Shown one piece after another: positions 243 to 30,404 of a stretch of 62,008 nucleotides of DNA (the first letter of the stretch is position 1; each line of letters begins with the position of its first letter). This stretch comes from an uncultured bacterium. GTDB lineage: Bacteria > Schekmanbacteria > GWA2-38-11 > J061. The position numbers and the translations under genes were made by a program. The notes under the pieces are model-generated. The model was given only the letters and a program-made list of their open reading frames with translations, was not told the DNA's origin and did not search any database. The DNA lies in contig CAZJVM010000008.1 in NCBI GenBank assembly GCA_964549305.1, positions 1-62,008 on the forward strand, in the 5' to 3' direction.

Positions 243-923
243 GTGGACCCCAAAATAAAGGAAAAAATTCCCCTCAAGGGCATACGAGCGCGCATAGCAA
301 AGAAAATGACACAAAGCTGGACCGGCGCGCCGAGAGTTGCTGAAATTGTCCTTGTCAATATGGAGGAGGCAAAGAAGTTTGCCGATTCAAAAAAATCCGA
401 AGGCGTTACTATCAATGACCTTTTAATCCGTGCCTGCGCGTTGTCTTTAAAGGAATATTCGATTCTCAATTCCGCAATAATCGGTGAAGAGATTTTTGTC
501 TTTGAAAATATAAGCGTCGCATTTGCTGTTGCCCTCGATGACGGACTTATTACCCCCGTAATCCCCGAGGCAGACTCACTGAGTTTGAAAGATGTTGCGG
601 CAAAAAGGGCGGAAGTTGTGAAAAGAGTTCGTAAAGGGGAAAGGACTCCTGACCTTTTAACGGGAGGCACTTTCACGATAACAAATTTAGGTGGCGCGGG
701 AATCGAGCTTTTTACGCCTATTATAAATTTCCCGCAGTGCGCGATTCTTGGCGTTGGCAAGGCGATAAAGCGTCCTGTTGTCGATGAGGGGGGAAATATA
801 GTGCCTCAACTTAGTATGTATGCGTCTTTCGTTTTTGACCACCGCATCGTTGACGGACTGCCTGCGGCAAGATGTCTTGCTAAAATTAAGGACTATCTCG
901 AGAATCCCGGGAAAATGGAATAG
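243..923 (+). CDS. 2-oxoacid dehydrogenase E2 (dihydrolipoamide acyltransferase), catalytic domain only
   Basis: GTG start with AAGGAG RBS just upstream. Motifs IRARIAKKM, GGTFTITNLG, FTPIINFPQCAILGVG and catalytic DHRIVDG. No lipoyl or E3-binding domain; the upstream DNA is AT-rich and looks non-coding. Confidence 0.9.
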   Translation: MDPKIKEKIPLKGIRARIAKKMTQSWTGAPRVAEIVLVNMEEAKKFADSKKSEGVTINDLLIRACALSLKEYSILNSAIIGEEIFVFENISVAFAVALDDGLITPVIPEADSLSLKDVAAKRAEVVKRVRKGERTPDLLTGGTFTITNLGGAGIELFTPIINFPQCAILGVGKAIKRPVVDEGGNIVPQLSMYASFVFDHRIVDGLPAARCLAKIKDYLENPGKME

Positions 924-1020
924 CTTTTTCTCTGTGTCCTCTGTGGTTCCAAAAAATATTTTTAGATGTTGGCTTTGTGGTTAATTAGTTTTTAAAAATA
1001 AGATTTTAAGGAATTTCATT

Positions 1021-1785
1021 ATGAAGAAAATATTTAATCTTGAAGGTAAAGTTGCAGTTGTCACAGGCGCAGGCAAGGGCATAGGCAGAGCGCTTGCAAT
1101 CGGACTTTCGGAATTCGGATGCGACCTCGTGCTTGTAGCGCGCACCCTTTCTGACCTTGAAAAGGTTGCAGGTGAAATCGAGAAGAGAGGAAGAAAAGCG
1201 CTTCCCGTATCCACTGATGTCGCTTCAGAAGAGCAGGTCAACGCAATGGTTGCCCGCGCTGTAGAAGAATACGGCACGATAGACATTCTCGTTAACAACT
1301 CAGGCGTAAGCGGAGATAAACCGGTTCTCAAAATGGACCTTGATTACTGGGAATGGGTAATGTCAGTGAACCTTCGCGGTCCTTTCCTATGTTCAAAAGC
1401 GGTTGGAGCCCAGATGGCAAAACAGAAGAGAGGGAAGGTTGTAAATGTGTCATCGATTACATATCAGATGGCAATTGCAAATATGACATCGTACAGCGCA
1501 AGCAAGGCGGGCTTGGTGCAGTTTACAAAGGTGCTTGCCCTTGAATGGGTGAAGTACAATATACAGGTCAATGCCGTATGTCCCGGATACATAAGAACTC
1601 CCATGAACGAGGAGTTTTTTTCGTCCGATGCGGGAAAAAAAGTAATAGACAAAACACTGCCTATGAAGCGTCTCGGAGAACCAGAAGAGATGGTAGGTTC
1701 GGTGGTTTATTTTTCCTCGCCTGCATCTGATTTTACTACCGGTGCGGTGCTCGTTGTTGATGGGGGGCAGATTCTCGGGAAGTAG
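1021..1785 (+). CDS. short-chain dehydrogenase/reductase (FabG/KduD-like)
   Basis: TGAGKGIG Rossmann motif, NNSG, catalytic YSASK, VNAVCPG, C-terminal VDGG. Confidence 0.92.
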   Translation: MKKIFNLEGKVAVVTGAGKGIGRALAIGLSEFGCDLVLVARTLSDLEKVAGEIEKRGRKALPVSTDVASEEQVNAMVARAVEEYGTIDILVNNSGVSGDKPVLKMDLDYWEWVMSVNLRGPFLCSKAVGAQMAKQKRGKVVNVSSITYQMAIANMTSYSASKAGLVQFTKVLALEWVKYNIQVNAVCPGYIRTPMNEEFFSSDAGKKVIDKTLPMKRLGEPEEMVGSVVYFSSPASDFTTGAVLVVDGGQILGK

Positions 1786-1882
1786 AGGGATTTTGTTGAC
1801 TCACCTGTTAAAAATTTGTTAAGCCAACTGAAAAAAATATTAAGTTTTGGCAAAAATTAAATCAATCAGTCGGAGGTAAGAG

Positions 1883-3469
1883 ATGAGCATTATTATCGGC
1901 AGGAACAAGAACCTGAGAAAACTGCTTGAATATCAGGCGGAAGACAAACCCGATAAGGATTTTATAATTTTCATAGACAAAGATGAAAATGTGGAGACCC
2001 TTACATACAAAGAGTTTAACATCAAGGTTAACCGTTTCGCGAATGCACTGCTTGAAATGGGAGTGAAAAAAGGCGATTTCGTGACCTGCCATCTTCCTAA
2101 TTCAACGGGCTTCTGCCTTACCTGGTTTGCTACTTCGAAAATAGGCGCCATAATGATTCCTACGAACATTATGTCGCGCGCTGAAGAAATGGAATATATG
2201 CTTCAGCACTCCGGTTCAGGCACAATCGTTACCGATCCCGAATATCTTGATATGATTAAGAGCATTAAGGGCAACTGCCCCGAACTTAAAAATATCATTC
2301 TCTACCGATGCGAAGAAGCGCCTGAAGGCACGAGGCTTTTGAATGACATTCTTCAGAATTATCCCGATGAGCTGAAGGAAATCGTTGAAGTAGGGCCTAT
2401 GGATGTTTCGAATATGCTCTATACTTCCGGCACCACGGCAAGGCCGAAGGGGGTGCTTCTCACTCACGGAAACTCCCTTTGGATTGGGGAATCGATGGCT
2501 TGCGAGCAAAAGCTTACATCCGGGGACAGGCACATATGCGTGCTTCCCCTGTTTCACGTAAACGCGCAGTATATTTCCTTTATGCCCACAATTACCGCGG
2601 GCGCGAGCATTATCGTCTGCGAGAGATTCAGCGCTTCGAGATACTACGGATATGTCAGGGAATACGGCGTGACAATTACAAGTCTTGTGGCGACAAATGT
2701 AAGACAGATTCTCGCTCAGCCGCGCACTCCTCACGATGCCAATAACAATATGAAAAGAATCTGTTTCGCCATTGCAATAACCGATGAGCAGTGGGACGAA
2801 TTTGAAACACGCTTCAACACAACTCTTCACGACCTTTACGGGCTTACGGAAACGCTTGCACCCTGCACCTTCACCTGTATGCACGCAAAGCGGGTGAGAG
2901 GTTCGGTGGGGCTTCCCGCATTCGGCATAGAGATAAAGATTGTTGACGATGACAGAAAAGAAGTGCCCATAGGTGAGGTTGGAGAAATCGCCGTACACGG
3001 CACTCCGGGAATTCAGCTTATGAAGGGATACTACAAAAACCCCGAAGCAACCGCCGAAGTGCTCGATGAAAATAATTGGTTTTACAGCGGTGATTTTGGA
3101 AAGATGAATGAAGACGGATATGTGTATTTCATAGACAGGAAGAAGGATGTCATAAAAAGGGCAGGGGAGAACATTGCCGCGCAGGAGGTTGAGAGAGTGC
3201 TTACCGAGCATCCCGCGATAGTTGAATCCGCCGTAATCGGTGTGCCTGACGAAATGCGCGACTGGGCGGTTAAGGCATTTATACTTCTCGACGAAGGAAT
3301 GTCAGTTACTGAAGACGAAGTGAAAGAGTTCTGTAAAGAAAGACTGGCTAAGTTTAAGGTGCCCGAGTTTATCGAGGTAGTTACGGAGTTTCCCAAAACC
3401 TCAATAGGAAAGATTCAAAAGAATATTTTGAAGAAAATGGAACTTGAAAAGTCTCAGGGAAAAAGCTAA
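1883..3469 (+). CDS. AMP-forming acyl-CoA ligase (CaiC/crotonobetaine-CoA ligase-like)
   Basis: YTSGTTARPKG AMP-binding motif, YGLTE, SGDFG, DRKKDVIKRAGENI, PKTSIGKIQK; GGAGG RBS. Substrate unknown. Confidence 0.9.
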   Translation: MSIIIGRNKNLRKLLEYQAEDKPDKDFIIFIDKDENVETLTYKEFNIKVNRFANALLEMGVKKGDFVTCHLPNSTGFCLTWFATSKIGAIMIPTNIMSRAEEMEYMLQHSGSGTIVTDPEYLDMIKSIKGNCPELKNIILYRCEEAPEGTRLLNDILQNYPDELKEIVEVGPMDVSNMLYTSGTTARPKGVLLTHGNSLWIGESMACEQKLTSGDRHICVLPLFHVNAQYISFMPTITAGASIIVCERFSASRYYGYVREYGVTITSLVATNVRQILAQPRTPHDANNNMKRICFAIAITDEQWDEFETRFNTTLHDLYGLTETLAPCTFTCMHAKRVRGSVGLPAFGIEIKIVDDDRKEVPIGEVGEIAVHGTPGIQLMKGYYKNPEATAEVLDENNWFYSGDFGKMNEDGYVYFIDRKKDVIKRAGENIAAQEVERVLTEHPAIVESAVIGVPDEMRDWAVKAFILLDEGMSVTEDEVKEFCKERLAKFKVPEFIEVVTEFPKTSIGKIQKNILKKMELEKSQGKS

Positions 3470-3481
3470 TTTCAACTGCGT

Positions 3482-4105
3482 ATGAAATATAAATTTGATC
3501 TAAGAGTAAGGCGCGTAGAAAAAAAACGCCTTGAAAACAGGGAAAAGCTCGGCGAACTGCTTGCATCCCTTCAGAAGAAAAAATCAACGAAGTGGAAAGA
3601 TTCCTTCATTGAAGCCGACAGAAATATCCATTTCGGCGGCGCTATTACAATTGATACTGACAAATGTATTGCGTGCGGCGCCTGCGCCGAGATATGCCCC
3701 ACCGGCGCCATTGAAATAGATGACAGGAAGGAAACAAGATTCATATCACACAATATGCAGATTTGTGTTGGTTGCAGAAAGTGCGAAAAAAGCTGTGATG
3801 ACGATGCCATTAAAGCAGTGCCCGGTGTTAACCTGAAAAAATTCTTTGACGGTTCCACTGAGCTCAAGAAGGAAGCCGAGCTTGTCGCCTGCAAAGAGTG
3901 CGGAAGGCCCGTGGGACCAAAAGCCGCAATAGATAAGCTCAGAAAAATTCTCGAAGAAGAATCCCACACACACAGCGAACTCGAGTTTTGCCAGAAGTGC
4001 CGCAAGTGGAGGACTGCCTATGAGGCAACGCCGAGACTTTCCATTCTCATTGGCAGGACTTCATCTGAAATAACAGGACAAGAAGAAGGTGGCAAAGAAA
4101 AATAA
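3482..4105 (+). CDS. 4Fe-4S dicluster ferredoxin-like protein with extra CxxC pairs
   Basis: CIACGACAEICP and CVGCRKCEKSC, plus CKEC and CQKC. Its end overlaps the start of hdrA. Confidence 0.8.
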   Translation: MKYKFDLRVRRVEKKRLENREKLGELLASLQKKKSTKWKDSFIEADRNIHFGGAITIDTDKCIACGACAEICPTGAIEIDDRKETRFISHNMQICVGCRKCEKSCDDDAIKAVPGVNLKKFFDGSTELKKEAELVACKECGRPVGPKAAIDKLRKILEEESHTHSELEFCQKCRKWRTAYEATPRLSILIGRTSSEITGQEEGGKEK

Positions 4106-6515
4106 GAAAGAAGAAAACTCACCGCAAAACAAATCAACCGTTGAAGCGAAGGGCACTCTTTTTATATGCACCTGCGCCGGAGAGATATCAAAAACAATCG
4201 ACATAGAAACGATTGCGGAAAGATTAAAAAAAGATAACGCCTTTCATTCCGTACACATTCACGATTCCCTTTGTCAGCAGGAAGGGATAAAGTTTATTAC
4301 CGATGAAGTAAAATCAGGTGTTATAGATAAATTCGTGATTTCCGCCTGCTCACCGCAAAGCATCGGAAAAATATTCAGAGAAGGACTTGACAGGGCGGGC
4401 ATCGAAAGAAGTTATTACGATATCGTAAATCTTCGCGAAGGGTGCGCGTGGCCTCATTCAGACGACCCTAAAGGCGCCACCGCTAAAGCCCTTACAATGA
4501 TAAAAGTGTCCGCGAAGGGAGTGGAATGTTTCCCGGAAATCAGAAAAGAGGAACGGACAATCTGCGATAATGCAGTGGTAATCGGAGGCGGGCCTGCCGG
4601 TATAGCGGCATCCTTTGAGCTCGCAGAGGCGGGAATCAGGACCACACTCCTTGACAAGAAGCATTATCTGGGCGGGATGGCAATGAAGCTCGGGATTGTG
4701 GCGCCCACAAACGACTGCGGACTCTGCACAGCGTTTCTCGATACGGAAAATCTTGAAGTCTGCAGAAAATGCCTTTACAGAAGCAGGATTGACGCGCAGC
4801 CAAACCTTAATATTGTTACCGGCGCGAATGTCACTTCCATAAAAGGGGAGCCGGGACATTTTTCCATATCAACGGAGATCGAACCCCGTTATGTTGATAT
4901 TGAGAAATGCATACTTTGCGGAAAGTGCGAAGAAATATGTCCCGTGGAAGGGATTAAAAGAAAATCCTATTCGACTGTTACTACAAAAGCGGCTTCTCTG
5001 CCGTGGCCTCAGGCAATACCCCGCGCGTACCTCATTGACAGGGAAGAATGCAGGGAGGGTTGTATAGAATGCGAGGAAATATGTCCTACAAAAGCCATCA
5101 ATCTAAAAAGTCAAAAAATATCCGGGACATTGGAAACGGGCGCTGTTGTCGTGGCAACCGGGATAAGCGAATACAAACCAACGCCCATCGTTGAATATGG
5201 TTTTGGAAGATATAAAAATGTGATTACTCAGCATGAGCTCGGACACCTTCTGAATCCCGAAAGCCACACCGAAGGCGAGCTTATCAGGCCCTCTGACGGA
5301 AAGAAGGCAAAGAATGTGGTGATGATTCAGTGCGTGGGCTCGAGGGATAAAAAATATAACGAATATTGTTCGGAAGTATGCTGTCTTTTTGCGATCAAGC
5401 ACGCCATTCTCATTAAAGAGAAAACAGACGCGGAAGTTACAATCTGCTATATCGATATAAGAACACCGGGAAATTTCGAGAAGTATTATATGGATGCCCG
5501 CGATAAGTGGGTAAGCTTCATAAAGGGCAGACCGTCAAGAATAGAGGAAAAGCCTGAGAACGGAAATCTCCTCGTTGAAGTTGAAGATGTTTCCACGGGC
5601 AAAGATCTCCTGTTAAACGCGGACCTTGTTGTGCTTTCGAGCGCCCTGAGACCCGCAAAGGGTACTGACAAACTCTCTGAGATTTCCGGGATTGACCTTA
5701 ATGAATACGGATTTATAAAGGAATATTACGGCAAAAACCGCGCGACGGAAACTTCCCTGAAGGGAATCTATGCCGCGGGATGCGCGACGGGTCCAAAAAA
5801 CATTCCACTTTCCATTGCTCAGGGAAGCGGTGCCGCGGCAAAGGTAATATCGCAGATTAAGAAGCAGAAGGCGATAAAGGAAGTGATGTGTGCCGAGATA
5901 GACGAAGAGCTTTGCATAAAATGCGGAATATGCGTCGATGTATGCCCAGTAAAGGCGGTGGAAACGAAAGAAGAATTTACCGCGATAGACCTTCTTGAAA
6001 CCCCGGAAGTGAACAGCATTAAATGTGTCAACTGCGGGCAGTGCTCGGCATTTTGTCCCACGGGGGCAATTTGGGCAGGCAATTACAGAGAGGAGAATTT
6101 CATTCCTCAGATAGAGGAGACACTGGAATCATCATCGGTGAGACCGAGAATTCTCACATTCCTGTGCCTCGAGTGCGCCTACGCGGCAGTTGACCTTGCA
6201 GGGCTGAAGAAGCTTTCCTATCCTTCAAATATACTTCCTCTGGGAGTACCCTGCGCGGGGAAGGTTTCGTTGATTGATATTTTCAAGGCGTTTGAATGCG
6301 GGGCCGAGGGCGTGATTGTGGGCGGTTGCGCAACGTGCCACTTTAAAAACGGCAGGGATTATATGGTTTCGCAGGTCGATTTTGCAAAAAAACTTCTAAC
6401 TTCCCTTGGAATAGAGAAAGAGCGGTTGGAGTATTTTACCACGGCAATTTCAGACCATAGAAAATTTCTTGACATAGCGCGAAGAATGACTGAAAAAGTT
6501 AAGTCAATTTCATAA
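4089..6515 (+). CDS. hdrA: HdrA-family flavoprotein fused to a C-terminal MvhD domain
   Basis: N-terminal Cys set (ICTC, SLC, SACSP, NLREGCAW), GGGPAG FAD motif, PTNDCGLC, inserted 2x[4Fe-4S], IQCVGSRD..YCSEVCC, C-terminal ferredoxin, then MvhD-like FLCLECAYAAVDLAG/VPCAG/GGCATCH. Confidence 0.9.
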   Translation: MAKKNKKEENSPQNKSTVEAKGTLFICTCAGEISKTIDIETIAERLKKDNAFHSVHIHDSLCQQEGIKFITDEVKSGVIDKFVISACSPQSIGKIFREGLDRAGIERSYYDIVNLREGCAWPHSDDPKGATAKALTMIKVSAKGVECFPEIRKEERTICDNAVVIGGGPAGIAASFELAEAGIRTTLLDKKHYLGGMAMKLGIVAPTNDCGLCTAFLDTENLEVCRKCLYRSRIDAQPNLNIVTGANVTSIKGEPGHFSISTEIEPRYVDIEKCILCGKCEEICPVEGIKRKSYSTVTTKAASLPWPQAIPRAYLIDREECREGCIECEEICPTKAINLKSQKISGTLETGAVVVATGISEYKPTPIVEYGFGRYKNVITQHELGHLLNPESHTEGELIRPSDGKKAKNVVMIQCVGSRDKKYNEYCSEVCCLFAIKHAILIKEKTDAEVTICYIDIRTPGNFEKYYMDARDKWVSFIKGRPSRIEEKPENGNLLVEVEDVSTGKDLLLNADLVVLSSALRPAKGTDKLSEISGIDLNEYGFIKEYYGKNRATETSLKGIYAAGCATGPKNIPLSIAQGSGAAAKVISQIKKQKAIKEVMCAEIDEELCIKCGICVDVCPVKAVETKEEFTAIDLLETPEVNSIKCVNCGQCSAFCPTGAIWAGNYREENFIPQIEETLESSSVRPRILTFLCLECAYAAVDLAGLKKLSYPSNILPLGVPCAGKVSLIDIFKAFECGAEGVIVGGCATCHFKNGRDYMVSQVDFAKKLLTSLGIEKERLEYFTTAISDHRKFLDIARRMTEKVKSIS

Positions 6516-6634
6516 ATAATATTTTTAAAAAATATATGAAGGGAGGTGAGACGTAAAACAATCGTATTTAAGTTTCACCTGAGTTTTCACCAACAATGGT
6601 ATATGCCAATTTAATTTGAAGGGGGATTAATCAT

Positions 6635-7120
6635 ATGGAACAAAACAAGTTTATAATGATCAATCCGGAAAAATGTACGGGTTGCAGAACTTGTGAGATG
6701 GCTTGTTCTCTTTTCAATGAAAAAGAGTGCAGCCCGTCTTTATCAAGAATCCGGGTTGTAAGAAACGAAGCGGTAGGAGACAGTTTTCCTGTCGGATGTG
6801 CTCTCTGCTCAAAACCGGTATGTGTTGAAGTCTGCCCTACGGGTGCAAACTCCATTGACCCTGAAATGGGGACCGGCATAATCAATGAAGAAGTTTGCAT
6901 TGGATGCAAGGCATGTGTAAGGGCGTGTCCTTTCGGCGCCGCGGGAATAAGCTACAAAACAGGCAAAGCTTACAAGTGTAATCTTTGCGGGGGCGACCCG
7001 AAGTGCGTGAAGCACTGCCCTACCAAATGTCTTGACTATGCGCCTCTTGAGCTTACGGTAAGGCACCGCAGGCGTGCTCTTGCTGATGACGTAATCTCTA
7101 AGTTAAAAGGGGAGGGTTAA
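6635..7120 (+). CDS. 4x[4Fe-4S] electron-transfer subunit (DmsB/HydN-like) partnering the AOR
   Basis: CTGCRTCEMAC, CALCSKPVCVEVCP, CIGCKACVRACP, KCNLCGGDPKCVKHCP; ends 3 nt before the AOR gene. Confidence 0.9.
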   Translation: MEQNKFIMINPEKCTGCRTCEMACSLFNEKECSPSLSRIRVVRNEAVGDSFPVGCALCSKPVCVEVCPTGANSIDPEMGTGIINEEVCIGCKACVRACPFGAAGISYKTGKAYKCNLCGGDPKCVKHCPTKCLDYAPLELTVRHRRRALADDVISKLKGEG

Positions 7121-7123
7121 TCA

Positions 7124-9076: not shown

Positions 9077-9096
9077 GAAGCGTTAGGAAACTCTAT

Positions 9097-9131
9097 TGCG
9101 GGAAGGATTGAATATCCTTCCCGCATTTTTA
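9097..9131 (+). terminator. intrinsic terminator after aor
   Basis: 12-bp perfect stem TGCGGGAAGGAT/ATCCTTCCCGCA, 5-nt loop, followed by TTTTT. Confidence 0.8.
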
Positions 9132-9177
9132 TCTCACAACACTTGAAAAAATTAATCAGCAAGGGTAATTCTATACT

Positions 9178-9486
9178 ATGAAGATTAATATAAAATATTA
9201 TAACCTGACTCTTGATGTCACCAAGAAGCTCGAAGAGGAAGTGGAATTTCCCGAAGGGACCACTGTAAACGAGGCAATAAAAAAGATGTGCGCCGTGTAC
9301 GGTTATACCTTTGAGCAAAGGGTAATGCTTACAATGGATTCTATGGAAGGCAAGGTGCAAAGGGCAAATGTGTACCTGAATAACCGCCCTGTTGATTATG
9401 AATACGAGTACCCCGACAAGCTCGATACGGTACTTAAAGAAGGCGACAAGCTTTCTTTCGGGTCCCTTATAGGCGGCGGTTTGTAA
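9178..9486 (+). CDS. MoaD/ThiS-family ubiquitin-like sulfur carrier
   Basis: MKINIKYY start, GTTV.E, LKEGDKL and C-terminal IGGGL; lies next to aor, as is common for MoaD-like genes. Confidence 0.8.
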   Translation: MKINIKYYNLTLDVTKKLEEEVEFPEGTTVNEAIKKMCAVYGYTFEQRVMLTMDSMEGKVQRANVYLNNRPVDYEYEYPDKLDTVLKEGDKLSFGSLIGGGL

Positions 9487-11684: not shown

Positions 11685-11686
11685 TT

Positions 11687-22900: not shown

Positions 22901-24413
22901 TCTTTTTCAGGAAGCATTGAGAGAAGCCGGGCTGAATCCCTATCTTTTCGAAATGGCGAATATCAGAGACCAATGTACGTGGGTGCATTCAAAAAGCCCC
23001 GACAAGGCACTTGATAAGGCGAAAACTCTCGCTCAGATGGCGGTAATGCGCGCGAGAAAGCTCAACCCGCTTTACAATCAGGACATAGACATCTGCCGTG
23101 ATGTGCTCGTTATAGGCGGCGGAATTGCGGGAATGACTTCCGCTCTGAGTCTCGCGAAACAGGGATTCAGAGTAATCATCATAGAAAAGGACAAGGATTT
23201 GGGCGGACTTCTTCGCGATGTCAAATTTACTGTGGAGGGGAAAGACCCTGCAGAAATTCTTTCAAGGCTTAAAAGCGAAATTGAATCAAATGGACTTATA
23301 AGCATCTATTACGAAAGCGTTGTGGAAGAGGTGCGGGGATTTATGGGCAACTTCGATGTAAAGGTAAGCCAGAGAGGAAACGGAGGAATCAGTCCCTTTA
23401 AGTGCGGGGTTGTCATCGTGGCAACGGGAGGAAAGGAATACAGGGGGAATGAATATCTTTACGGTGAATCGGAAATCGTAAAGACTCAGCTTGAATTTGA
23501 AAACATCCTGAAGAAGAGTCCTGATGAGATACGAAAACTCAAAAGAGTGGCAATGATTCAGTGCGTAGGGTCAAGAAACGACGAAAGACCCTACTGCTCG
23601 AGAGTCTGCTGTACCGAGGCGGTGAAAAACGCGCTCAAAATTAAAGAGATATCTCCTGATACGGAGGTTATCGTTTATTACAGGGATATAAGAACTTTCG
23701 GATTCAGGGAAAAATATTATACGCAGGCGAGAAAGAAGGGAGTAGTTTTTATATGCTTTAATGAAAATGAACCTCCCGAAGTTTCACAGGAAGAAGGCGC
23801 GATAAAAATCAGTGTAAAGGACAGAGTGCTCGGGGAAAAAGTTTCGCAGACATTCGATATGCTTCTCCTCAGTATGGCGATAGTGCCCTATGAGGAAAAC
23901 AAGGCGGTTTCCGATGCCCTGAAGATTCCTTTAACTGCTGAATCATTTTTTCTTGAAGCCCATATGAAACTTAAGCCCGTTGATTTCGCTTCTGAGGGAA
24001 TTTTCCTTTGCGGAATGACTCATTTTCCAAAATTTATGGAAGAGAGCATTGCTCAGGCGCTTGCCGTTTCAGGAAGGGCAAATACGATTCTTGCAAAGGA
24101 TAAACTGCACGTGGGCGGTTCCGTTGCTGTGGTGGATGAAAACAAATGCGCTTCGTGCCTTACCTGCGTAAGGACTTGCCCCTATCAGGTGCCGAAGGTG
24201 TTGGACAGGGTTGCCCACATAGAGGTTGCGCAATGTCAGGGATGCGGCACTTGCACGGCGGAATGTCCCAACAAGGCAATTCAGCTTTTGCACTATACCG
24301 ACGAGCAGGTAATCGCAAAGTGCGACTCCTTCAATCTCGAGGAAAGAGAGGCAAAGAAGGAGGAAACGAAATTCGCCGATGATTCGCCTGTAATCGGGAA
24401 AAACGAAAGTTAG
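19920..24413 (+). CDS. hdrA: large HdrA (HdrL-type): two HdrA modules plus a GltD-like NAD(P)H-binding insert
   Basis: ATG at 19920 (MAEENK). QLDKTFPTNDCAMC; insert C..SCP/NPLPGVCGRMCHHPCE..C, GAGPSG, GGGNVALD; two IQCVGSR..YCS.VCC motifs; internal GVFVCRCG/SCTP/NIRDQC; C-terminal ferredoxin. Confidence 0.9.
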   Translation: MAEENKNGKKGAVLVLGGGVAGMQSAIDLADSGYYVYLAEKSPYIGGKMAQLDKTFPTNDCAMCTISPRLVGVGRHLNIEIVSGVELIRVEGEAGNFKAYLRQNERLVDPAKCTACGDCKEVCPVEVDSEFDLGLTKRTAVYKSYSQAVPNAYAIDKKGFSACKVSCPAGISVQGYIALIAKGKYKEAYNLIMKNNPLPGVCGRMCHHPCESDCKRGLVDEAVSIRNLRRFLADRIYGDPGFMPPQAEVDTQPEKIAIIGAGPSGLSCAYYLTLEGYSVEIFEALPVKGGMLSVGIPEYRVPADSLAVEISNIEALGVKIHTNTRVGKDIPFSKLMEDFDAVYIAAGAHLANRLNIPGVENEDVIEGVGFLRKVSLGEEVPKGKKAVVIGGGNVALDVARTALRIGFDVSLMCLESEEEIPCHPWELEEAIEEGVKVNYSLGPKEIIVKDGSVRGVKTIKVKSVFDGDGRFSPEFYEGTEDTMEGDKVFLAIGQRPDLSFLESYEWQIGINPGNTVKVDPSLLCADEEKIYAGGDVVRGPASAIEAIADGRRAAMVLDSKFRGKPVPEDVRPEPTEPDLESKKIKKQWKKVPSKLSAEERIKDFREIEKPFSEDDALAEALRCLHCSVCSDCRLCVEACGPDAISHDGPVQTVKELDVGAIILSPGFEYYDVNLKEEFGHQRYKNVLSSLEFERILSAGGPFMGEINRLSDGQHPKKIAWIQCVGSRDEDRDYCSSVCCMYATKQARLVKEHLPDTECTIFFIDLRAFGKGFDDYCIRAEGLGVKYVRCRPSSVKEDPLTQNLLFQYVSPEGKLLTDEFEMIILSGGLGAGKEQKEVADTLNIELNEFEFCNTDKWNPLNTNREGIYTCGAFTEPKDIPESVTQASGAAALAIELLKDVRNTCTKTKEYPDEKDISKEEPRVGVFVCRCGTNIGGVIEVPSVVDYVKDLPEVVFAEENMYTCAADSLEKIKEMIKEHDLNRVVVTSCTPRTHEPLFQEALREAGLNPYLFEMANIRDQCTWVHSKSPDKALDKAKTLAQMAVMRARKLNPLYNQDIDICRDVLVIGGGIAGMTSALSLAKQGFRVIIIEKDKDLGGLLRDVKFTVEGKDPAEILSRLKSEIESNGLISIYYESVVEEVRGFMGNFDVKVSQRGNGGISPFKCGVVIVATGGKEYRGNEYLYGESEIVKTQLEFENILKKSPDEIRKLKRVAMIQCVGSRNDERPYCSRVCCTEAVKNALKIKEISPDTEVIVYYRDIRTFGFREKYYTQARKKGVVFICFNENEPPEVSQEEGAIKISVKDRVLGEKVSQTFDMLLLSMAIVPYEENKAVSDALKIPLTAESFFLEAHMKLKPVDFASEGIFLCGMTHFPKFMEESIAQALAVSGRANTILAKDKLHVGGSVAVVDENKCASCLTCVRTCPYQVPKVLDRVAHIEVAQCQGCGTCTAECPNKAIQLLHYTDEQVIAKCDSFNLEEREAKKEETKFADDSPVIGKNES

Positions 24414-24418
24414 AAAAA

Positions 24419-24907
24419 ATGGAAGATATAAAAGAAAACAGGGAAGAAATACAGGGAACGGAAAAAGCCATTTCCGCGGGAGATTACGAACCTCAGGTAA
24501 TCGCTTTCTGCTGTTATTTCTGCGCTTTTGCCGCGGCGGATATGGCAGGGTCTCTGCGTCTTCAATATCCGGCAAACGTAAAAATAATAAGAATACCCTG
24601 TACGGGGAAGCTTGATATCGTTTATATACTGACCGCTTTTGAAAACGGCGCGGATGCAGTCTTTGTGGCGGGATGCCTTGAGGGAAACTGCCATTATTTA
24701 AAGGGCAATATTCGCGCGAAGTCAAGAGTTGAGAGTCTTAAAAAAATGTTTGAAGAAATCGGGATTGAACCTGAACGCCTCGAGATGTTCAATATGTCCT
24801 CATCGATGGGACAGGCATTTGCAGAAGCGGCAACTGAAATGACTGAAAGGGCGCTCAAGCTTGGAAGAAGTCCTGTCTTTACAGGGAAGAAAGATAAGAA
24901 TGGATGA
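24419..24907 (+). CDS. mvhD: MvhD/FlxD-like [2Fe-2S] protein
   Basis: AFCCYFCAFAAADMAG, RIPCTGK, FENGADAVFVAGCLEGNCHY..GN, GIEPERL. Confidence 0.93.
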   Translation: MEDIKENREEIQGTEKAISAGDYEPQVIAFCCYFCAFAAADMAGSLRLQYPANVKIIRIPCTGKLDIVYILTAFENGADAVFVAGCLEGNCHYLKGNIRAKSRVESLKKMFEEIGIEPERLEMFNMSSSMGQAFAEAATEMTERALKLGRSPVFTGKKDKNG

Positions 24908-25475
24908 GATAACGCTTGAAAATAAATCAAAGGAATTCCGCGAGCTTATAGAAAAAATCAGCGGACAGAATATCAATGCCTGCTATCAGTGTCTCAAGTG
25001 CAGTGCCGGATGCCCAATGGCAGATGAAATGGATTACACGCCCGCGCAGATAATTCACGCCATACGATTGGGCCTTGAGGATTACGTGATTGAAAGCGGG
25101 ACAATCTGGGTTTGCGTAAGCTGTGAAACCTGCTCGACGAGATGCCCGCAGGGTCTTGACATAGCGCACATTATGGATGCGGCGAGAAACATTGCCTACA
25201 GGCGCCATATTAAACCTCCCGGGGAGTCGAAGGAGATTGCTGACTTCTATGCCGTTGCCCTGAAGAATATCAGGACTTACGGAAGAATGTACGAGCTTGG
25301 TCTCGTGCTGGGTCATAAGATGAAAACGGGGGATTACTTCAAGGATATGAAGATCGGAATGAAGATGGGAATGAAGGGGAAACTTAAAATCGTCCCCGCG
25401 CGGATTCGCAATGTCAAGGCGGTGGATAAAATATTCAAAAAGGTTTCCGAACTCGAGGAGAGTGAGAAGATATGA
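24900..25475 (+). CDS. hdrC: heterodisulfide reductase subunit C-like (second copy)
   Basis: ATG at 24900; CYQCLKCSAGCP and IWVCVSCETCSTRCPQ. Confidence 0.9.
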   Translation: MDEITLENKSKEFRELIEKISGQNINACYQCLKCSAGCPMADEMDYTPAQIIHAIRLGLEDYVIESGTIWVCVSCETCSTRCPQGLDIAHIMDAARNIAYRRHIKPPGESKEIADFYAVALKNIRTYGRMYELGLVLGHKMKTGDYFKDMKIGMKMGMKGKLKIVPARIRNVKAVDKIFKKVSELEESEKI

Positions 25476-26344
25476 GCTATTCTTATTATCCGGGATGCTC
25501 TCTCCATTCAACGGGCGCGGAGTATGACATCTCCATAAAATATGTTTTCAAAAAACTCGGCATAGAATTTGAGGAAATAAAGGGGTGGAATTGCTGCGGC
25601 ACAACGCCAGCACATTGTACATCGAAGTATCTTTCAGTGGCGCTTCCTGCGAGAAACCTGAAACTTGTCGAGGATTCCGGACGGGATAAAGTCGCCGTGC
25701 CCTGTGCTTCCTGCTTTTCCCGTCTTAAAAGGGCAAAGTATGAAATGGCAAATGATGAAAATATCCACAGGAAAGTGAATGAAATAATAGATGCCGATTA
25801 CTCCAACAGCGTTGAGGTGGTCCATCCTCTCTCCATCATAAAAGAGGAAACAGGACTTGATGAGCTAAGGAAGAAGATGAAGAAGTCCCTTTCGGGAATG
25901 AAGGTCGCCTGCTATTACGGATGCCTTATGACAAGACCTCCCGAGGTGACGGAGTTTGATAACTGCGAGTACCCGGTGATTATGGACGAGATTCTTTCCG
26001 AGATGGGCGCTGAAGCCATAGAATGGGGATACAAGACCGACTGTTGCGGGGCGAGTTTTTCCATATCGAGGATTGATTCTTCCTTAAAACTTATGGGAAA
26101 GATTTTTAAGGACGCGGTGGCGAGGGGCGCCGACTGCATCGTTGTTGCCTGTCCTCTCTGTCACGCAAATCTTGATACAAGACAGGAAGACATTAACGGC
26201 GAAGAGGGGACTGATTATAACATCCCCGTATTTTACTTTTCCGAACTTCTGGCAATCGCCCTGGGCGCGCGCACAGGCGAACTTGGACTCAGGAAACACA
26301 TTGTCGACACATCGGAACTTCTCTCCAGATACGAGCTTGCATAA
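25472..26344 (+). CDS. hdrB: heterodisulfide reductase subunit B-like (second copy)
   Basis: YYPGCSL..WNCCG..PCASC and YYGC..DCCG..ACPLCH.NLD.RQ. Confidence 0.92.
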   Translation: MSYSYYPGCSLHSTGAEYDISIKYVFKKLGIEFEEIKGWNCCGTTPAHCTSKYLSVALPARNLKLVEDSGRDKVAVPCASCFSRLKRAKYEMANDENIHRKVNEIIDADYSNSVEVVHPLSIIKEETGLDELRKKMKKSLSGMKVACYYGCLMTRPPEVTEFDNCEYPVIMDEILSEMGAEAIEWGYKTDCCGASFSISRIDSSLKLMGKIFKDAVARGADCIVVACPLCHANLDTRQEDINGEEGTDYNIPVFYFSELLAIALGARTGELGLRKHIVDTSELLSRYELA

Positions 26345-26346
26345 TC

Positions 26347-26367
26347 AAAAAGGGGTGACCCCTTTTT
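26347..26367 (+). terminator. possible intrinsic terminator after hdrB
   Basis: AAAAAGGGG-TGA-CCCCTTTTT hairpin followed by a pyrimidine run. Confidence 0.55.
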
Positions 26368-26477
26368 CTTCTTTCCTCTTGTATTCTTTTACTTGATATA
26401 TTTTAATAAAAAGGTAAAAGAGAATTTCTCTTTAAATCGGATGATCTATCATAAAATATTTTGGAGGGAATAATATT

Positions 26478-26927
26478 ATGTCCAAGATTGAAGGCTTCGA
26501 AATGCCCGATGAGTTGTACTATCACAGCGAACATAGCTGGGCGAAGATTGAAGACGGTAACGTAAGAGTGGGGATGTCGGACTTTTTTCAGCAGCAGGCA
26601 GGCGCGGTGGTCTATGTTGACCTTCCCGATGAGGATGATGATGTTGAGGCAGGCGAGGTTTGCGGAAAGATTCAGACAAGGAAATGGATAGGTAAGCTTG
26701 TGGCACCTGTGGGAGGAACAATTCTCGAAATAAATGAAGGCGTTAACGATGACAATACCATTATAAACAAAGACCCTTATAACGAGGGATGGATTCTTCT
26801 AATAGAACCTTCCGGACTCGATGAAGACCTTGGAAAACTCATACACGGCGACAAGGTTGAAGAGTGGATCAAGTCCGAAATCAAACGCGCTGAGGAATTG
26901 AAGGCGCAGGGGGGCGGAGGCGAATAA
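26478..26927 (+). CDS. GcvH-family lipoyl carrier, LbpA-like
   Basis: LYYHSEHSWAK, VRVGMSDF, lipoyl-Lys context GKIQTRKWIGKLVAPVGG (K-W-x-G as in LbpA-type proteins, not VESVKA as in GcvH), INKDPYNEGWI. No gcvT or gcvP in the window. Confidence 0.88.
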   Translation: MSKIEGFEMPDELYYHSEHSWAKIEDGNVRVGMSDFFQQQAGAVVYVDLPDEDDDVEAGEVCGKIQTRKWIGKLVAPVGGTILEINEGVNDDNTIINKDPYNEGWILLIEPSGLDEDLGKLIHGDKVEEWIKSEIKRAEELKAQGGGGE

Positions 26928-27016
26928 ATCAGACTAAAAACTTCCCCGCAATACCTCAGGAGAATTTCCCGATTTCTCTTCAAAAATATTTTTATTAAAC
27001 CGGAGTACGCGTTAAA

Positions 27017-28075
27017 TTGGAAAAATGGAGACATATCAAAGAATGGGATAAGCTTGTTTATCCCGAATACGGTCTTGCTGTTGACGACACACTGCCCTTT
27101 TCCGTGGCAGAGAAAAAATCAGTTCCCGTACTTCATCTTTACAGGTTTGAACCTGCGGCAATAGTTGGGAAATATCAGGATATAAAAGCGGCGCTCAAGA
27201 TTGACCGATGCCGTGAACTTGGAATACATTTCAACAGGCGAAGCACCGGTGGCGGTACGGTGATAATGGGCCCGAAGGCGGTTGCGCTTGGTTTTGGAAT
27301 TTCCCTGAATCATCCGGCGATGCAGGGCGGGATCAGGGGTATATTCAAAGTTATGAGCAATATCCTCGTTAGGACTCTCGCGGACTTCGGAATCAAGAGC
27401 ACTTTTCGTCCTAAAAACGATCTTGAAGTCAACGGAAAGAAAATTGCGGGACTCTCTGCCTCTGCCGATGTGCAGGACGCCGTTCTTTTTCATACGAGCC
27501 TTCTCGTTGATTTTGACATAAAACTTATGCTCGATATTATGAATACCCCCGCGGAGAAGATTTACGACAAGGGTTACAGCTGTTTCAGTGAAAGAATGAC
27601 CACGATGGAAAAGGAAGTGGGAGAGAAGATTGAAATAGCCCGGGTTATGGAAAGCGTGAAGAAGTCCTTTGAAAAGCAGTTTAATGTCGTCTTCGAGGAA
27701 GATGAGCTTACGCAATGGGAAAAAAAGAAAATCGAGTGGTTTGAAAGCAGGAGATACAGGGACGAAAAATGGATTTTCTCGAAACGCCATCCAAAGTGCA
27801 GGATGGGGGAAGGACTTCTTAAAACGGCAGGGGGACTTCTTCAAATTTATATTTCCCTTGCGGGGGGCGTTATCGAAAATCTGATGATTACGGGTGATTT
27901 CTTTTCCACCGGAGAGGATATAAACCGCCTTGAATCAAACCTTAAATATACTATGGCAAACAGAGAGAATATCGAAAATTCCCTAAAGCAGGTTTGGAAG
28001 GACGATATAATCTTCGGCGTCGATATACCAACCCTTGCCACAGCAATCCTCAAGGCAAGCGAAAAATGTATATAG
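27017..28075 (+). CDS. lipoate:protein ligase, catalytic plus C-terminal accessory domain (sLpl(AB)-like)
   Basis: VGKYQ, RRSTGGGTV, KNDLEVNGKKIAG, HTSLLVDFD, C-terminal KTAGGL..ITGDFF. Confidence 0.88.
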   Translation: MEKWRHIKEWDKLVYPEYGLAVDDTLPFSVAEKKSVPVLHLYRFEPAAIVGKYQDIKAALKIDRCRELGIHFNRRSTGGGTVIMGPKAVALGFGISLNHPAMQGGIRGIFKVMSNILVRTLADFGIKSTFRPKNDLEVNGKKIAGLSASADVQDAVLFHTSLLVDFDIKLMLDIMNTPAEKIYDKGYSCFSERMTTMEKEVGEKIEIARVMESVKKSFEKQFNVVFEEDELTQWEKKKIEWFESRRYRDEKWIFSKRHPKCRMGEGLLKTAGGLLQIYISLAGGVIENLMITGDFFSTGEDINRLESNLKYTMANRENIENSLKQVWKDDIIFGVDIPTLATAILKASEKCI

Positions 28076-28097
28076 AAACAATATTGGAAGAAAGATT

Positions 28098-29141
28098 TTG
28101 AATACAAACTCATCTGAAAGCCCTCACACAGTTAAATTAAGCCTTGCCTCGGCAATGGCGCTCGATTTAAAGCCGGGGCTTTTTTACCGCAACGCCCAGA
28201 ATCCCTGTATAAATATTCTTCTTAAATATAGTGAAGGATGCCATGCCAAGTGCGCTTACTGTGGTTTGTCCAAGGCAAGAGACGGCGAGTATGACGAAAA
28301 ATCCTTCATAAAGGTGGAATGGCCCTCATATAGCGTTGATGAACTGGTAAAAGCCATAAACGGAAAAAAGGGCAGAGTAAAGCGCGTCTGTATTTCGATG
28401 GTTACAAACCTTCGGGCAATCAACGATACCGTTGAAATAACAAAGCGCATAAGGTCGGGAGTTGACACGCCAATATCGGTGCTTCTTGCCCCCACAATCG
28501 TTAAAAAAGATGATATGCGAAAGATGAATGACGCAGGCGCGGACAAAGTGGGAATTGCCCTCGATGCGGCAAATGAGGAGATATTCGACCTTTACAGAGG
28601 GAAGTCGGTAAAAGGTCCTCATAAGTGGGAAAGATATTTGACGGCAATAGATGAAGCAGTGGAAGTGTTCGGCAGGGGCAATGTGGGAATACATATGATT
28701 GTTGGATTGGGCGAAACCGAAAGGGAATTCGTGGAGTTAATGTTCAGATTCAGAAAACTCGGCGCGAAGACCCATCTCTTTTCCTTTTTTGCCGAAGACG
28801 GTTCTCCTCTTGACGGAGTGTCGCCTCCTTCGATGGGAAAATACCGCAGGATGCAGATTGCAAGATATCTTATCGATGAGAAGAAAATAGATGAAAGTGA
28901 AATATCCTTCAATGAAAATGATGAAGTTAAGCAGTTTCTGATTTCTCCCCGCAAGCTCGATAAGATAATAGAAGATGGTGCCGCTTTCGTCACCAGCGGA
29001 TGCGCGGGAAAGGACGGCAAGGTTGCCTGCAACCGTCCCTATGGCGACAGTCTTCCGGGCGACAACATCAGAAGCTTTCCCTTCAAACCGCAGAGCGAAG
29101 ATATATCGCGAATAAAGAAACAGGTTTTTGAATATGATTGA
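28098..29141 (+). CDS. lipS2: radical SAM lipoyl synthase component, LipS2-like
   Basis: CHAKCAYC (CxxxCxxC), HMIVGLGETE, C-terminal TSGC...CNRP motif; adjacent to the ligase and LbpA. TTG start at 28098 is inferred. Confidence 0.78.
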   Translation: MNTNSSESPHTVKLSLASAMALDLKPGLFYRNAQNPCINILLKYSEGCHAKCAYCGLSKARDGEYDEKSFIKVEWPSYSVDELVKAINGKKGRVKRVCISMVTNLRAINDTVEITKRIRSGVDTPISVLLAPTIVKKDDMRKMNDAGADKVGIALDAANEEIFDLYRGKSVKGPHKWERYLTAIDEAVEVFGRGNVGIHMIVGLGETEREFVELMFRFRKLGAKTHLFSFFAEDGSPLDGVSPPSMGKYRRMQIARYLIDEKKIDESEISFNENDEVKQFLISPRKLDKIIEDGAAFVTSGCAGKDGKVACNRPYGDSLPGDNIRSFPFKPQSEDISRIKKQVFEYD

Positions 29142-30081
29142 AAATACAGAGAGGGAACTGGGGAATCTTCTTGAAAGGTCAAGGAATCTTTCGTGGAAGG
29201 TTTTCGGGAAAAACATCACTTTGTATCTTCCGGGAATGATAAGGTGCGGAAGCGAAACAGGTCTCTATCCCGCCGTATCTGTGTCAGGGGGAAGATGCGA
29301 GCTCGCCTGCGACCATTGCGCGGGCAAAGTACTCGAACCGATGATAGAAGCGGACAACCCCGATACGCTTTTTGATGTCTGCAAAAGGATAAAAAAAGCA
29401 GGTAACATAGGCGTACTTTTAAGCGGTGGAAGCCGTTATGACGGCAAAGTCGGATGGGGTAAGTTTGCCGATATCATAAAAAGAATAAAAGACGAAACGG
29501 GGCTTCATATATCGATTCATACGGGACTGCTGAACAGTGAAGAAGCGCGCCTTTTAAAATCGGCGGGAGTCGACCAGGCATTGACCGATGTAATCGGAAG
29601 CGATGAAACATTGAAAGAAGTCTATCATCTTGAATGCGGAGTGGGTGCAATTAAGGAAACGCTCGATGCTTTATATGATGCTAATATTCCTGCCATACCG
29701 CATATCGTCGCGGGGCTTCATTACGGGAAATTCAGAGGCGAATATAATGCTCTTGATATGCTTGAGCAATATTCTCCCGAAACTCTTGTTATTGTAACAC
29801 TCACGCCTTTTGCGGGCACACCTATGGAAGGGTGCAAAACGCCCCATATACGCGAGGTTGCAAACCTTATTTGTAATGCGAGAATTATGCTTGCAAAGAC
29901 GGAGATTTCGCTTGGTTGCGAACATCCCAGAAACAGGGACGGAATCGAGCTTGAAAAGTATGCCGTTCTTGCCGGAGTGAACAGGATTGCCGTTTATTCC
30001 AATGAGGCGGAAGAAGTTGCGGAAAAACTGGGAGTTGATATACACTATGCAAAGACCTGCTGTTCGGTAAGAGTTAACTAA
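29134..30081 (+). CDS. lipS1: radical SAM lipoyl synthase component, LipS1-like
   Basis: SVSGGRCELACDHC, LLSGG, HTGL, PHIVAGL, LGCEHPR (variant of GC(M/A)R), terminal TCCS. Confidence 0.78.
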   Translation: MIENTERELGNLLERSRNLSWKVFGKNITLYLPGMIRCGSETGLYPAVSVSGGRCELACDHCAGKVLEPMIEADNPDTLFDVCKRIKKAGNIGVLLSGGSRYDGKVGWGKFADIIKRIKDETGLHISIHTGLLNSEEARLLKSAGVDQALTDVIGSDETLKEVYHLECGVGAIKETLDALYDANIPAIPHIVAGLHYGKFRGEYNALDMLEQYSPETLVIVTLTPFAGTPMEGCKTPHIREVANLICNARIMLAKTEISLGCEHPRNRDGIELEKYAVLAGVNRIAVYSNEAEEVAEKLGVDIHYAKTCCSVRVN

Positions 30082-30101
30082 ATAACGCTAAGGAGAGAAA
30101 T

Positions 30102-30404
30102 ATGACTGAAAGTGGAAATAATGAAAAAATGGAGAGAGGTCCCGTTATCAAGGCAACGGTAGTGAATATCAAAGGCGCTTGCGATGCGGGACACAAGGTG
30201 GGCGATGAGTTTATATTGACTCTGCACACCCCCGAAGGATTGTGCGTGGATGCCTGCGTCAATATTATTATTAAATTAAGAAATATGCTTTTTAAGAAGC
30301 ACGAGTTTTTTAAGGACAAAAATAAAAAAATCAGAGTAAACTGCCCCGATCTTCAGAATTATGTTGAATTTGAGCTTGAAAGGATTGAGAATTTAGACAA
30401 GTGA
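30102..30404 (+). CDS. TIGR04076-family small Cys protein
   Basis: KGACDAGHKVGDEF, PEGLC..A, CPD..NYVEFELERI; AAGGAG RBS. Confidence 0.75.
   Translation: MTESGNNEKMERGPVIKATVVNIKGACDAGHKVGDEFILTLHTPEGLCVDACVNIIIKLRNMLFKKHEFFKDKNKKIRVNCPDLQNYVEFELERIENLDK

Follow-up and report, generated by a model that had tools for sequence, protein, structure and literature searches.

Complexes of the HdrABC type (Hdr, heterodisulfide reductase) are widespread in non-methanogenic anaerobes, and to our knowledge their thiol/disulfide substrate is not known outside sulfate reducers. A contig from an uncultured member of the Schekmanbacteria raises the question of whether a protein-bound lipoyl group could be such a substrate. 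The stretch examined here (GenBank assembly GCA_964549305.1, contig CAZJVM010000008.1, positions 1 to 62,008; hereafter the window) carries, next to an Hdr operon, a gene for a GcvH-like lipoyl carrier resembling LbpA, together with its own lipoylation genes. The window is the whole of contig C8 in a genome (G000) of 2.94 Mb and 169 contigs that was scored 100% complete. Genes were called by Pfam and NCBIfam scans of open reading frames (ORFs) of at least 90 aa, and their order was compared with that in four relatives of the same order, one from the same genus (G001), one from the same family (G002) and two from another family (G003 and G004). The scans confirmed every gene named in an initial annotation, which had read positions 243-30404 as one relay system. 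The comparison did not uphold that unity, as the 30 kb fall into three separately conserved modules, A (243-9486), B (15061-26344) and C (26478-30404).

A lipoyl carrier with private maturation genes beside an Hdr operon

Module C lies on the plus strand. Its first gene (26478-26927; GCV_H match of 110.8 bits) encodes the LbpA-like carrier, a second GcvH paralogue with lipoyl lysine K69 and a single cysteine, C62. Downstream are an Lpl(AB)-type ligase with LplA-B_cat and Lip_prot_lig_C domains, the latter an LplB-like C-terminal part (27017-28075), and two radical-SAM genes in the order lipS2 (28035-29141) and lipS1 (29128-30081), whose best family matches of 227.7 and 212.8 bits lie below the equivalog cut-offs of 270 and 230, respectively. 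The module ends with a 100-aa protein of the TIGR04076 family (30102-30404; 49.4 bits for a cut-off of 33). The order lbpA-lpl-lipS2-lipS1-TIGR04076 is kept in G001, G002 and G004. The TIGR04076 protein, which directly follows lipS1 in G002 and G004 as well, may be an accessory of the LipS1/LipS2 route.

The carrier is 42% identical to the canonical GcvH of the same genome, and its K69 aligns with the lipoyl lysine of that protein (QTRKWIG versus ESVKAVS). It lacks the canonical ESVKA-type lysine context and any linkage to gcvT or gcvP. Among 23 members of the carrier family, the stretch around the lipoyl lysine is near-invariant; K69, W70 and C62 are invariant, C62 being the only invariant cysteine. 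Family searches of the whole assembly placed the remaining lipoate-dependent enzymes elsewhere. The 2-oxoacid dehydrogenase components E1alpha, E1beta and a 430-aa E2 with a lipoyl domain are on contig C24 near a LipB-like gene, dihydrolipoamide dehydrogenase (E3) is on C85, LipA is on C18, and gcvT-gcvH-gcvPA-gcvPB, which include the other GcvH, lie together on C11 with a further LplA/LipM-like gene. The initial annotation was thus right that E1, E3, gcvT and gcvP are missing from the window; they were found on other contigs only. Its proposal that HdrABC stands in place of E3 fails on the same results, since a genome with E1, a full E2, E3, gcvTHP, LipA and LipB leaves no room for a simple replacement of E3 by Hdr. 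By its gene content, the organism is predicted to have the ordinary lipoate-dependent enzymes as well as the ordinary route of lipoate synthesis. The predicted carrier, with maturation genes of its own, comes in addition to the housekeeping LipB/LipA, GcvH and E2. Some Schekmanbacteria are described in the accessible part of PMC10332631 as having LipS1/LipS2 with LipM and no ligase; the genome studied here has both kinds of gene, the LplB-domain ligase in the window and the LplA/LipM-like gene on C11.

Module B, also on the plus strand, is a nine-gene Hdr operon assigned by Pfam, with NCBIfam matches for HdrC, HdrB and HdrL and a PDB match for HdrB2. It comprises HdrC1 (15061-15630), HdrB1 with two CCG domains (15627-16511), a truncated HdrA of 420 aa (16532-17794), a second HdrA of 562 aa (17787-19475), MvhD1 (19472-19927), HdrL of 1505 aa, in which a ferredoxin part and a GltD-like NAD(P)H domain are joined to HdrA (19896-24413), MvhD2 (24419-24907), HdrC2 (24861-25475) and HdrB2, again with two CCG domains (25472-26344). 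The order is kept in G001, G002 and G003; no HdrL orthologue was found in G004, which is 70% complete. The window as a whole has four HdrA-family proteins, three MvhD domains (three FlpD matches, one of them in a fusion) and two HdrC/HdrB pairs.

The components are those of classical HdrABC/MvhD, with two [4Fe-4S] motifs in HdrC, two CCG domains in HdrB, an FAD/Fe-S HdrA and MvhD. Residues 147-566 of methanogen HdrA are matched by the 420-aa HdrA with 245.7 bits, and its alignment to the sHdrA of sulfur oxidisers (PDB 6TJR, 112.6 bits) is only partial. HdrB2 matches methanogen HdrB with about 150 bits. Residues 161-660 of HdrL match the NAD(P)-binding model PRK12771 with 541.5 bits, in front of the HdrA segments. 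The HdrL of Desulfobacterium autotrophicum has an NAD(P)H-binding GltD-like domain fused to HdrA with mvhD next to it, as given in the accessible part of PMC2702500, and the arrangement of hdrL and mvhD in the window agrees with this type as far as that source describes it. These matches indicate that module B is a classical, methanogen-like, bifurcation-type Hdr with a predicted NAD(P)H arm rather than an sHdr.

The carrier family across phyla

The carrier family was surveyed with one genome per species. A relative is encoded in 457 genomes, and the best 80 loci were analysed. The best homologues are labelled Schekmanbacteria, followed by many 'Deltaproteobacteria' metagenome-assembled genomes (MAGs) with 60-67% identity, and the relatives are anaerobe MAGs (Desulfobacterota, Thermoplasmata, Zixibacteria). 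Searches by tblastn with the window proteins showed lbpA-lpl-lipS2 to be the common core of these loci. Hdr-family genes were found within about 5 kb of the carrier gene in 19 of the 80, 16 by tblastn and three by a hidden Markov model (HMM) built from 18 CCG domains of the window's genome. The CCG ORFs are concentrated close to lbpA: 13 of 17 lie within 2 kb, where their density is 0.32-0.54 per 10 kb versus about 0.04 at 2-9 kb.

The distribution of these neighbours follows the phylogeny of the carrier. When the 80 loci, the window, G001 and G002 were placed in a maximum-likelihood tree with canonical GcvH as outgroup (84 rows), all 21 Hdr-adjacent rows, including the window, fell in one clade of 27 rows (88/78), with an inner clade of 24 rows at 100/97. 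None of the other 56 tree rows is Hdr-adjacent, and three of the six unlabelled rows within the clade sit on short contigs. The label of Hdr adjacency requires seven changes on the tree versus a mean of 18.8 after shuffling, with none of 500 shuffles as low, a test that overstates the case because the label was set post hoc from the same loci and the tree rows are related to one another.

About six phyla are represented in the Hdr clade, the labels being Schekmanbacteria, Planctomycetota, Deltaproteobacteria/Thermodesulfobacteriota, Zixibacteria, Clostridia and Thermoplasmata. The neighbours of the carrier differ by lineage: HdrL-MvhD in one arrangement; MvhD, an FrhB-like protein, Fer4_22, an NAD-binding protein, HdrC and HdrB in another, which we take to resemble Flx-Hdr; HdrL with a NiFe hydrogenase, HycI and OsmC in a third; and LarA-like and FAD-oxidase/CCG proteins in a fourth. 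Because the neighbours vary between lineages, they are not a single inherited block. Judged from these neighbourhoods, the constant feature of the clade is a carrier adjoining a putative CCG-type disulfide module. The third arrangement comes from three Thermoplasmata loci (L061, L078 and L088), which hold, in this order and at about 4.9-10.4 kb, HdrL, a Fer4_22/FAD/NAD fusion, the small and large NiFe subunits, the HycI protease, an OsmC-family protein and the LbpA-like carrier. The position of OsmC directly upstream of the carrier in these loci hints at a link to lipoyl-dependent peroxidases.

We also examined the classical lipoate enzymes in 50 of the 80 genomes, a set that covers 17 of the 19 Hdr-adjacent loci (all but L036 and L093) and includes 19 clade genomes. 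The E2 catalytic domain was found in 22 of the 50 and in three of the 19 clade genomes, GcvT in 39 and 15, and the E3-type Pyr_redox_dim domain in 47 and 16, respectively. Neither an E2 domain nor GcvT nor Pyr_redox_dim was found in G047 and G067, genomes of unstated completeness for which absence is unproven. G047 is a single 3.4-Mb record titled 'chromosome' and G067 has 1.6 Mb; both keep lbpA-lpl-lipS between CCG proteins, and in G067 the carrier itself is the sole GCV_H match. At least nine clade genomes have their strongest GCV_H match next to gcvT and the LbpA-like copy at another place, the same split as in the window's genome.

Other members of the GCV_H family were seen in this survey. 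G047 has six GCV_H-family matches, and its LbpA-like gene (locus L038) lies between HdrB and an FAD-oxidase with a Fer4_8/CCG protein. On contig C24 of G003 (L167, 7175-11121, minus strand), two proteins of 283-292 aa, each with an N-terminal extension followed by GCV_H, flank a Fer4_11 protein (NrfC/DsrO-like) and an NrfD-like membrane protein. The Hdr operon of G003 lies 13-16 kb away. Similar long GCV_H pairs occur in G002, G004 and G047, and the GCV_H family search found none in the window's genome.

The carrier as a candidate HdrB substrate and its alternatives

Because the clade of the carrier adjoins CCG proteins (HdrB or HdrD/GlcF-like) in distant phyla, we infer that the carrier may be a substrate of HdrB. 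DsrC is the proposed substrate of Flx-Hdr in sulfate reducers. A genome-wide family search found no DsrC-family gene in the window's genome; the usual candidate substrate of bacterial HdrB was therefore not found. We propose that the lipoyl/dihydrolipoyl group of the LbpA-like carrier would be a dithiol/disulfide couple turned over by HdrB and wired to NAD(P)H, a proposal on which, given comparative evidence of this kind, our judgement is evenly balanced. With slightly more hesitation, we suggest that the carrier may be the disulfide substrate on which the Hdr modules of non-methanogenic bacteria and archaea act. Gene content, conservation, paralogy and the cross-phylum neighbourhood are observations, and the biochemical steps built on them are all conjectural. 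In these steps, the Lpl(AB)-type ligase of module C would load the carrier, LipS2/LipS1 would add the sulfur, and the lipoyl/dihydrolipoyl group of the carrier would be turned over at the non-cubane clusters of HdrB. In the complex encoded by the nine genes of module B, HdrL would link the carrier to NAD(P)H and HdrA would probably link it to ferredoxin, while in other lineages the CCG proteins would be joined to NAD(P)H modules (HdrL or Flx-like) or to H2 modules (NiFe hydrogenase). Module A is a separate, lineage-specific operon with predicted acid, aldehyde and acyl-CoA chemistry, and no observation ties its E2 to LbpA in particular.

Two claims of the initial annotation bear on this proposal and stand in part. 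LbpA-bound lipoate as the HdrB substrate is favoured by the clade association with CCG/Hdr proteins in several phyla and by the two genomes in which no E2, GcvT or E3 was found, all of which is evidence of association. The placement of lbpA and the lip genes beside hdr genes recurs in the clade across phyla, but its spacing is variable within the order to which the window belongs.

A number of observations weigh against the carrier as an HdrB substrate. Downstream of the hdrB2 stop codon and before lbpA lies a terminator-like hairpin with a 9-bp GC-cored stem and a T-rich tail (26347-26375, plus strand), and a separate AT-rich leader with GGAGG precedes lbpA. For these reasons modules B and C are probably separate transcripts, and the idea of a single operon of hdr genes and lbpA is not supported. 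From hdrB2 to lbpA there are 134 bp in the window; the gap widens to 2.1 kb in G001 and to 18.4 kb in G002. The Hdr operon and module C are on different contigs in G003, and the 2.8 kb upstream of lbpA in G004 hold no Hdr gene. Across the family, 61 of the 80 loci, mostly from Desulfobacterota, have no Hdr gene near lbpA, and in the cultured strain NaphS2 lbpA follows hisD with only housekeeping genes around it and no Hdr. Furthermore, the ordinary E3 of the genome could serve the carrier, and the function of every family member is predicted from sequence context. In G003, contig C34 begins within the LipS2 orthologue, so lbpA probably lies in an assembly gap; the possibility that this genome has modules A and B and truly lacks LbpA was rejected on account of this truncation.

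Energetics also limit the form that the reaction could take. The potential of lipoamide is about -290 mV and that of NADH -320 mV, while CoM-S-S-CoB is at about -140 mV and ferredoxin below -400 mV. On these values, lipoamide is a poor high-potential acceptor for bifurcation driven by NAD(P)H, and it is unable to drive ferredoxin reduction from NAD(P)H. Feasible options would be confurcation, in which dihydrolipoyl and reduced ferredoxin together reduce NAD(P)+, plain NAD(P)H:lipoyl-protein oxidoreduction, or a carrier that is sulfur-loaded or otherwise modified.

The main rival, which we consider unlikely, is that the neighbourhood is due to chance and that module C is a second GcvH with LipS1/LipS2 lipoylation, serving as a relay, scavenging or spare H protein with no tie to Hdr. 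Both the terminator between the two units and the 61 loci with no Hdr gene nearby, such as that of NaphS2, are what it would predict, and tight adjacency is confined to the genus of the window. According to the accessible part of PMC10332631, LipS1/LipS2 occur widely outside sHdr organisms, and 42% of LipS1/S2 bacteria have sHdr. However, chance does not readily explain why CCG genes are so sharply concentrated within 2 kb of the carrier, nor why the Hdr-adjacent rows form one clade that spans several phyla with differing Hdr-type neighbours. In addition, the carriers of G047 and G067, where no GcvT, E2 or E3 was found, could not serve the classical complexes, and housekeeping LipB/LipA and a ligase linked to the glycine cleavage genes are already present in the window's genome.

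The initial annotation had gone further and proposed that a lipoyl-less E2 encoded in module A shuttles acyl groups between CoA and LbpA in trans, that Hdr takes the place of E3 in re-oxidising or reducing the carrier, and that the metabolism of the CoA ligase, a short-chain dehydrogenase/reductase (SDR) and AOR is tied in this way to flavin-based bifurcation. Module A, on the plus strand throughout, opens with a stand-alone E2 catalytic domain of 226 aa (243-923) that matches PF00198 only, with 227.7 bits over model positions 4-230 of 232. It continues with an SDR (1021-1785), an AMP-binding, AMP-forming acyl-CoA ligase (1883-3469; best NCBIfam match a CaiC-like ligase with 489.8 bits, below the cut-off of 651), a 207-aa ferredoxin (3482-4105), a full-length HdrA fused to MvhD (808 aa, 4089-6515; PDB HdrA match of 433 bits plus MvhD), an AorA-like ferredoxin (6635-7120), a tungsten-type AOR (7124-9076; 458 bits to PDB 1aor) and a MoaD/ThiS-like protein (9178-9486). 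This order is kept in all four relatives, hence in five of five genomes with the window, and the E2 has the SDR, CoA ligase, ferredoxins, HdrA::MvhD and AOR as operon neighbours in each, with no E1 or E3 there.

That this E2 has an intact catalytic domain and no lipoyl domain was correctly recognised in the initial annotation. Alignment to solved E2 structures shows the active-site stretch FDHRIVDG to be retained, and Pfam found neither a lipoyl domain nor a peripheral-subunit-binding domain (PSBD). A GTG start codon follows an AAGGAG motif, and stops close every frame of the AT-rich 242 bp that precede the gene. In the four relatives the orthologous frames code for 224-247 aa, and one of these genes lies well within a contig of 658 kb. 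The lipoyl arm is therefore truly missing and not lost to a contig-end artefact, because the upstream region is closed and the orthologues are equally short. Ordinary 2-oxoacid dehydrogenase E2s (PDB 6ZZN, 1B5S, 1EAA) share the catalytic acyltransferase domain with its DHRxxDG motif; the window E2 differs in having no lipoyl domain, PSBD or operon E1/E3 and in lying in an AOR/HdrA/CoA-ligase operon.

An E2 that still performs E2 chemistry without its own arm would need a lipoyl group in trans, which speaks in favour of the proposed acyl shuttle. Modules A, B and C also stand in the same order on one contig in the window and in G002, all three are present in G000, G001 and G002 and, within the limits of its assembly, in G003, and module A has HdrA::MvhD and no HdrBC of its own. 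Against it, co-occurrence within one small order carries no weight, and comparison gave no support for an E2 that acts on LbpA. Orthologues of the lipoyl-less E2 form eight protein clusters (58-100% identity, 224-241 aa, PF00198 alone), of which all the named ones are labelled Schekmanbacteria; the next matches are ordinary E2s with lipoyl domain and PSBD at 48% identity or less. The gene was found in none of the 50 other carrier-bearing genomes searched, of which 28 have no E2 domain at all; the best E2 matches in these 50 reach at most 40% identity and nearly all lie in frames of at least 350 aa (two are shorter, with 273 and 292 aa). The distance from the E2 gene to lbpA is 25 kb in the window and 50 kb in G002, and the two are on different contigs elsewhere. 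Moreover, GcvH and the full E2 are alternative lipoyl proteins in this genome, which also has an E3; no observation favours LbpA over either of the two, and enzymes of the E2 fold can acylate other acceptors. We consider the full relay improbable. The relay stated for Schekmanbacteria, in which the carrier would be the substrate of an NAD(P)H-linked HdrL/HdrABC, E2 would acylate or deacylate it in trans and AOR/acyl-CoA chemistry would be coupled to bifurcation or confurcation without E1 or E3, appears to us a shade less probable again. Since the E2-only gene was seen among Schekmanbacteria only and was not found in the 50 carrier genomes, it is, on this distribution, a recent, lineage-specific derivative recruited into the AOR/HdrA operon. 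The clade of the carrier, by contrast, is old and occurs widely.

The AOR of module A was also compared with BamB, the class II benzoyl-CoA reductase type, and this identity was rejected with 208 bits for BamB versus 458 for AOR. A connection of AOR to HdrA::MvhD in place of an AorC-type flavoprotein looks undescribed. In AorABC, AorC is the flavoprotein partner. The AorABC of Aromatoleum aromaticum (PDB 8C0Z) and the AOR of Pyrococcus (1AOR) resemble the window genes in having a tungsten-type AOR, with an AorA-like polyferredoxin gene before and a MoaD-like gene after; the flavoprotein partner in the window is a full HdrA fused to MvhD and not AorC. Between modules A and B lies an unrelated ABC importer on the minus strand (10614-14783; Pfam matches to a MalK-like ATPase, two permeases and SBP_bac_1). 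This divergently transcribed importer occupies the position upstream of hdrC1 where G001 has a second AOR paralogue, 35% identical to that of the window and directly upstream of hdrC1 (contig C190, L169, 313-2175).

A further explanation, itself a form of the HdrB-substrate proposal and one to which we likewise give little credence, is an antioxidant or thiol-repair relay outside energy metabolism, in which Hdr would keep the carrier reduced for lipoyl-dependent peroxidases or thiol reductases of the OsmC/Ohr type. Lipoyl-dependent Ohr/OsmC peroxidases are known, and in the three Thermoplasmata loci the OsmC-family gene directly upstream of lbpA comes after HdrL and the NiFe hydrogenase. On the other hand, this adjacency is found in one lineage only, and Pfam detected no OsmC gene in the clusters of the window.

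Sulfur oxidation of the sHdr type, in which an Hdr-like complex would oxidise sulfane sulfur presented by LbpA to sulfite as in Hyphomicrobium and Aquifex, shares with the window two HdrBC pairs around HdrA, a GcvH-like carrier, a dedicated ligase and LipS1/LipS2, but is hardly credible given HdrA, HdrB and HdrC much nearer to methanogen Hdr than to sHdr, two MvhD genes and HdrL in the cluster, relatives that are anaerobe MAGs, and a carrier whose only cysteine is C62, where sHdr LbpAs have two strictly conserved cysteines, near the N-terminus and near the C-terminus, according to the accessible part of PMC6067878. The accessible part of PMC11094781 describes sHdr systems as accompanied by the sulfur transferases DsrE, TusA and rhodanese. 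None of these was found among the window ORFs of at least 90 aa, to which the search was limited, and the hdr-lbpA region has no room for more genes. We rejected sHdr membership on the type of HdrA, the carrier cysteines and the absence of sulfur transferases from the window ORFs.

Known systems and wider meaning

Three further groups of genes were seen in the window. Genes for a TonB-dependent receptor with CarboxypepD_reg and, after it, for a 603-aa protein without Pfam matches lie at 30492-35145, and the pair is also kept after module C in G002. On the minus strand, a TreT-like glycosyltransferase, DUF5752 and a trehalose-phosphatase (41634-44321) are likely to form a compatible-solute (trehalose) operon, to judge by their families, and are followed by a Na+/H+ exchanger and a CBS protein. 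A phosphate-uptake region, also on the minus strand (53482-61582), holds PhoU, a PstB-like ATPase, permeases, a histidine kinase, PBP_like_2 and a Porin_5 outer-membrane porin; the GC content is low (0.33) at 56-58 kb.

The closest known parallel is the sHdr-LbpA system of Hyphomicrobium denitrificans, Aquifex and Acidithiobacillus, which, in the accessible parts of PMC6067878 (Cao et al. 2018) and PMC10332631 (Tanabe et al. 2023), also has a GcvH-like lipoate-binding protein with a conserved lipoyl lysine. The likeness extends to a private Lpl(AB)-type ligase with LipS1/LipS2 beside lbpA, to adjoining Hdr genes with two HdrBC pairs and to a canonical lipoylation system in parallel. The window differs in that its Hdr is methanogen-like, the ferredoxin domains are complete, MvhD occurs twice and an HdrL with an NAD(P)H-binding part is present. 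Furthermore, the short sHdrA of about 350 aa (PDB 6TJR), encoded within shdrC1B1AHC2B2, was not found in the window, the hosts are anaerobic, and carrier and Hdr genes appear as separate transcription units.

The MvhADG-HdrABC of methanogens (PDB 5ODC, 8RVU, 9SFI) has clear homologues of HdrA, HdrB with two CCG domains, HdrC and MvhD. In contrast to it, the window has no Mvh hydrogenase, its HdrA is split into 420 and 562 aa with an additional HdrL fusion, and production of CoM-S-S-CoB is not expected in a bacterial host. The HdrL-MvhD of sulfate reducers (as far as PMC2702500, Strittmatter et al. 2009, describes it) and FlxABCD-HdrABC are also similar, in that HdrA carries a fused GltD-like NAD(P)H domain with mvhD after it and an NADH-linked Hdr occurs outside methanogens. 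They differ in their relation to DsrC: in the window's genome, which yielded no such gene, a lipoyl carrier stands at the place that DsrC genes hold in some sulfate reducers.

Our literature search for a published account of the carrier-Hdr pairing in anaerobes found none and returned only sHdr and general Hdr papers; the supplementary tables of PMC10332631, which cover LipS1/S2 genomes without sHdr, may list these organisms. The accessible part of PMC13261682 does not address lipoamide as an Hdr substrate. By its gene content, the window would belong to a variant of the sHdr-LbpA theme that appears to be undescribed in print, and its proposed function is a prediction throughout. The lipoyl-less E2 within the AOR/HdrA operon is a small curiosity of its own. 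A dedicated lipoyl carrier that travels with CCG proteins across phyla is a concrete and testable substrate candidate for the Hdr complexes of non-methanogenic anaerobes. If this is true, the sHdr-LbpA principle would extend from aerobic sulfur oxidisers to anaerobic energy metabolism.

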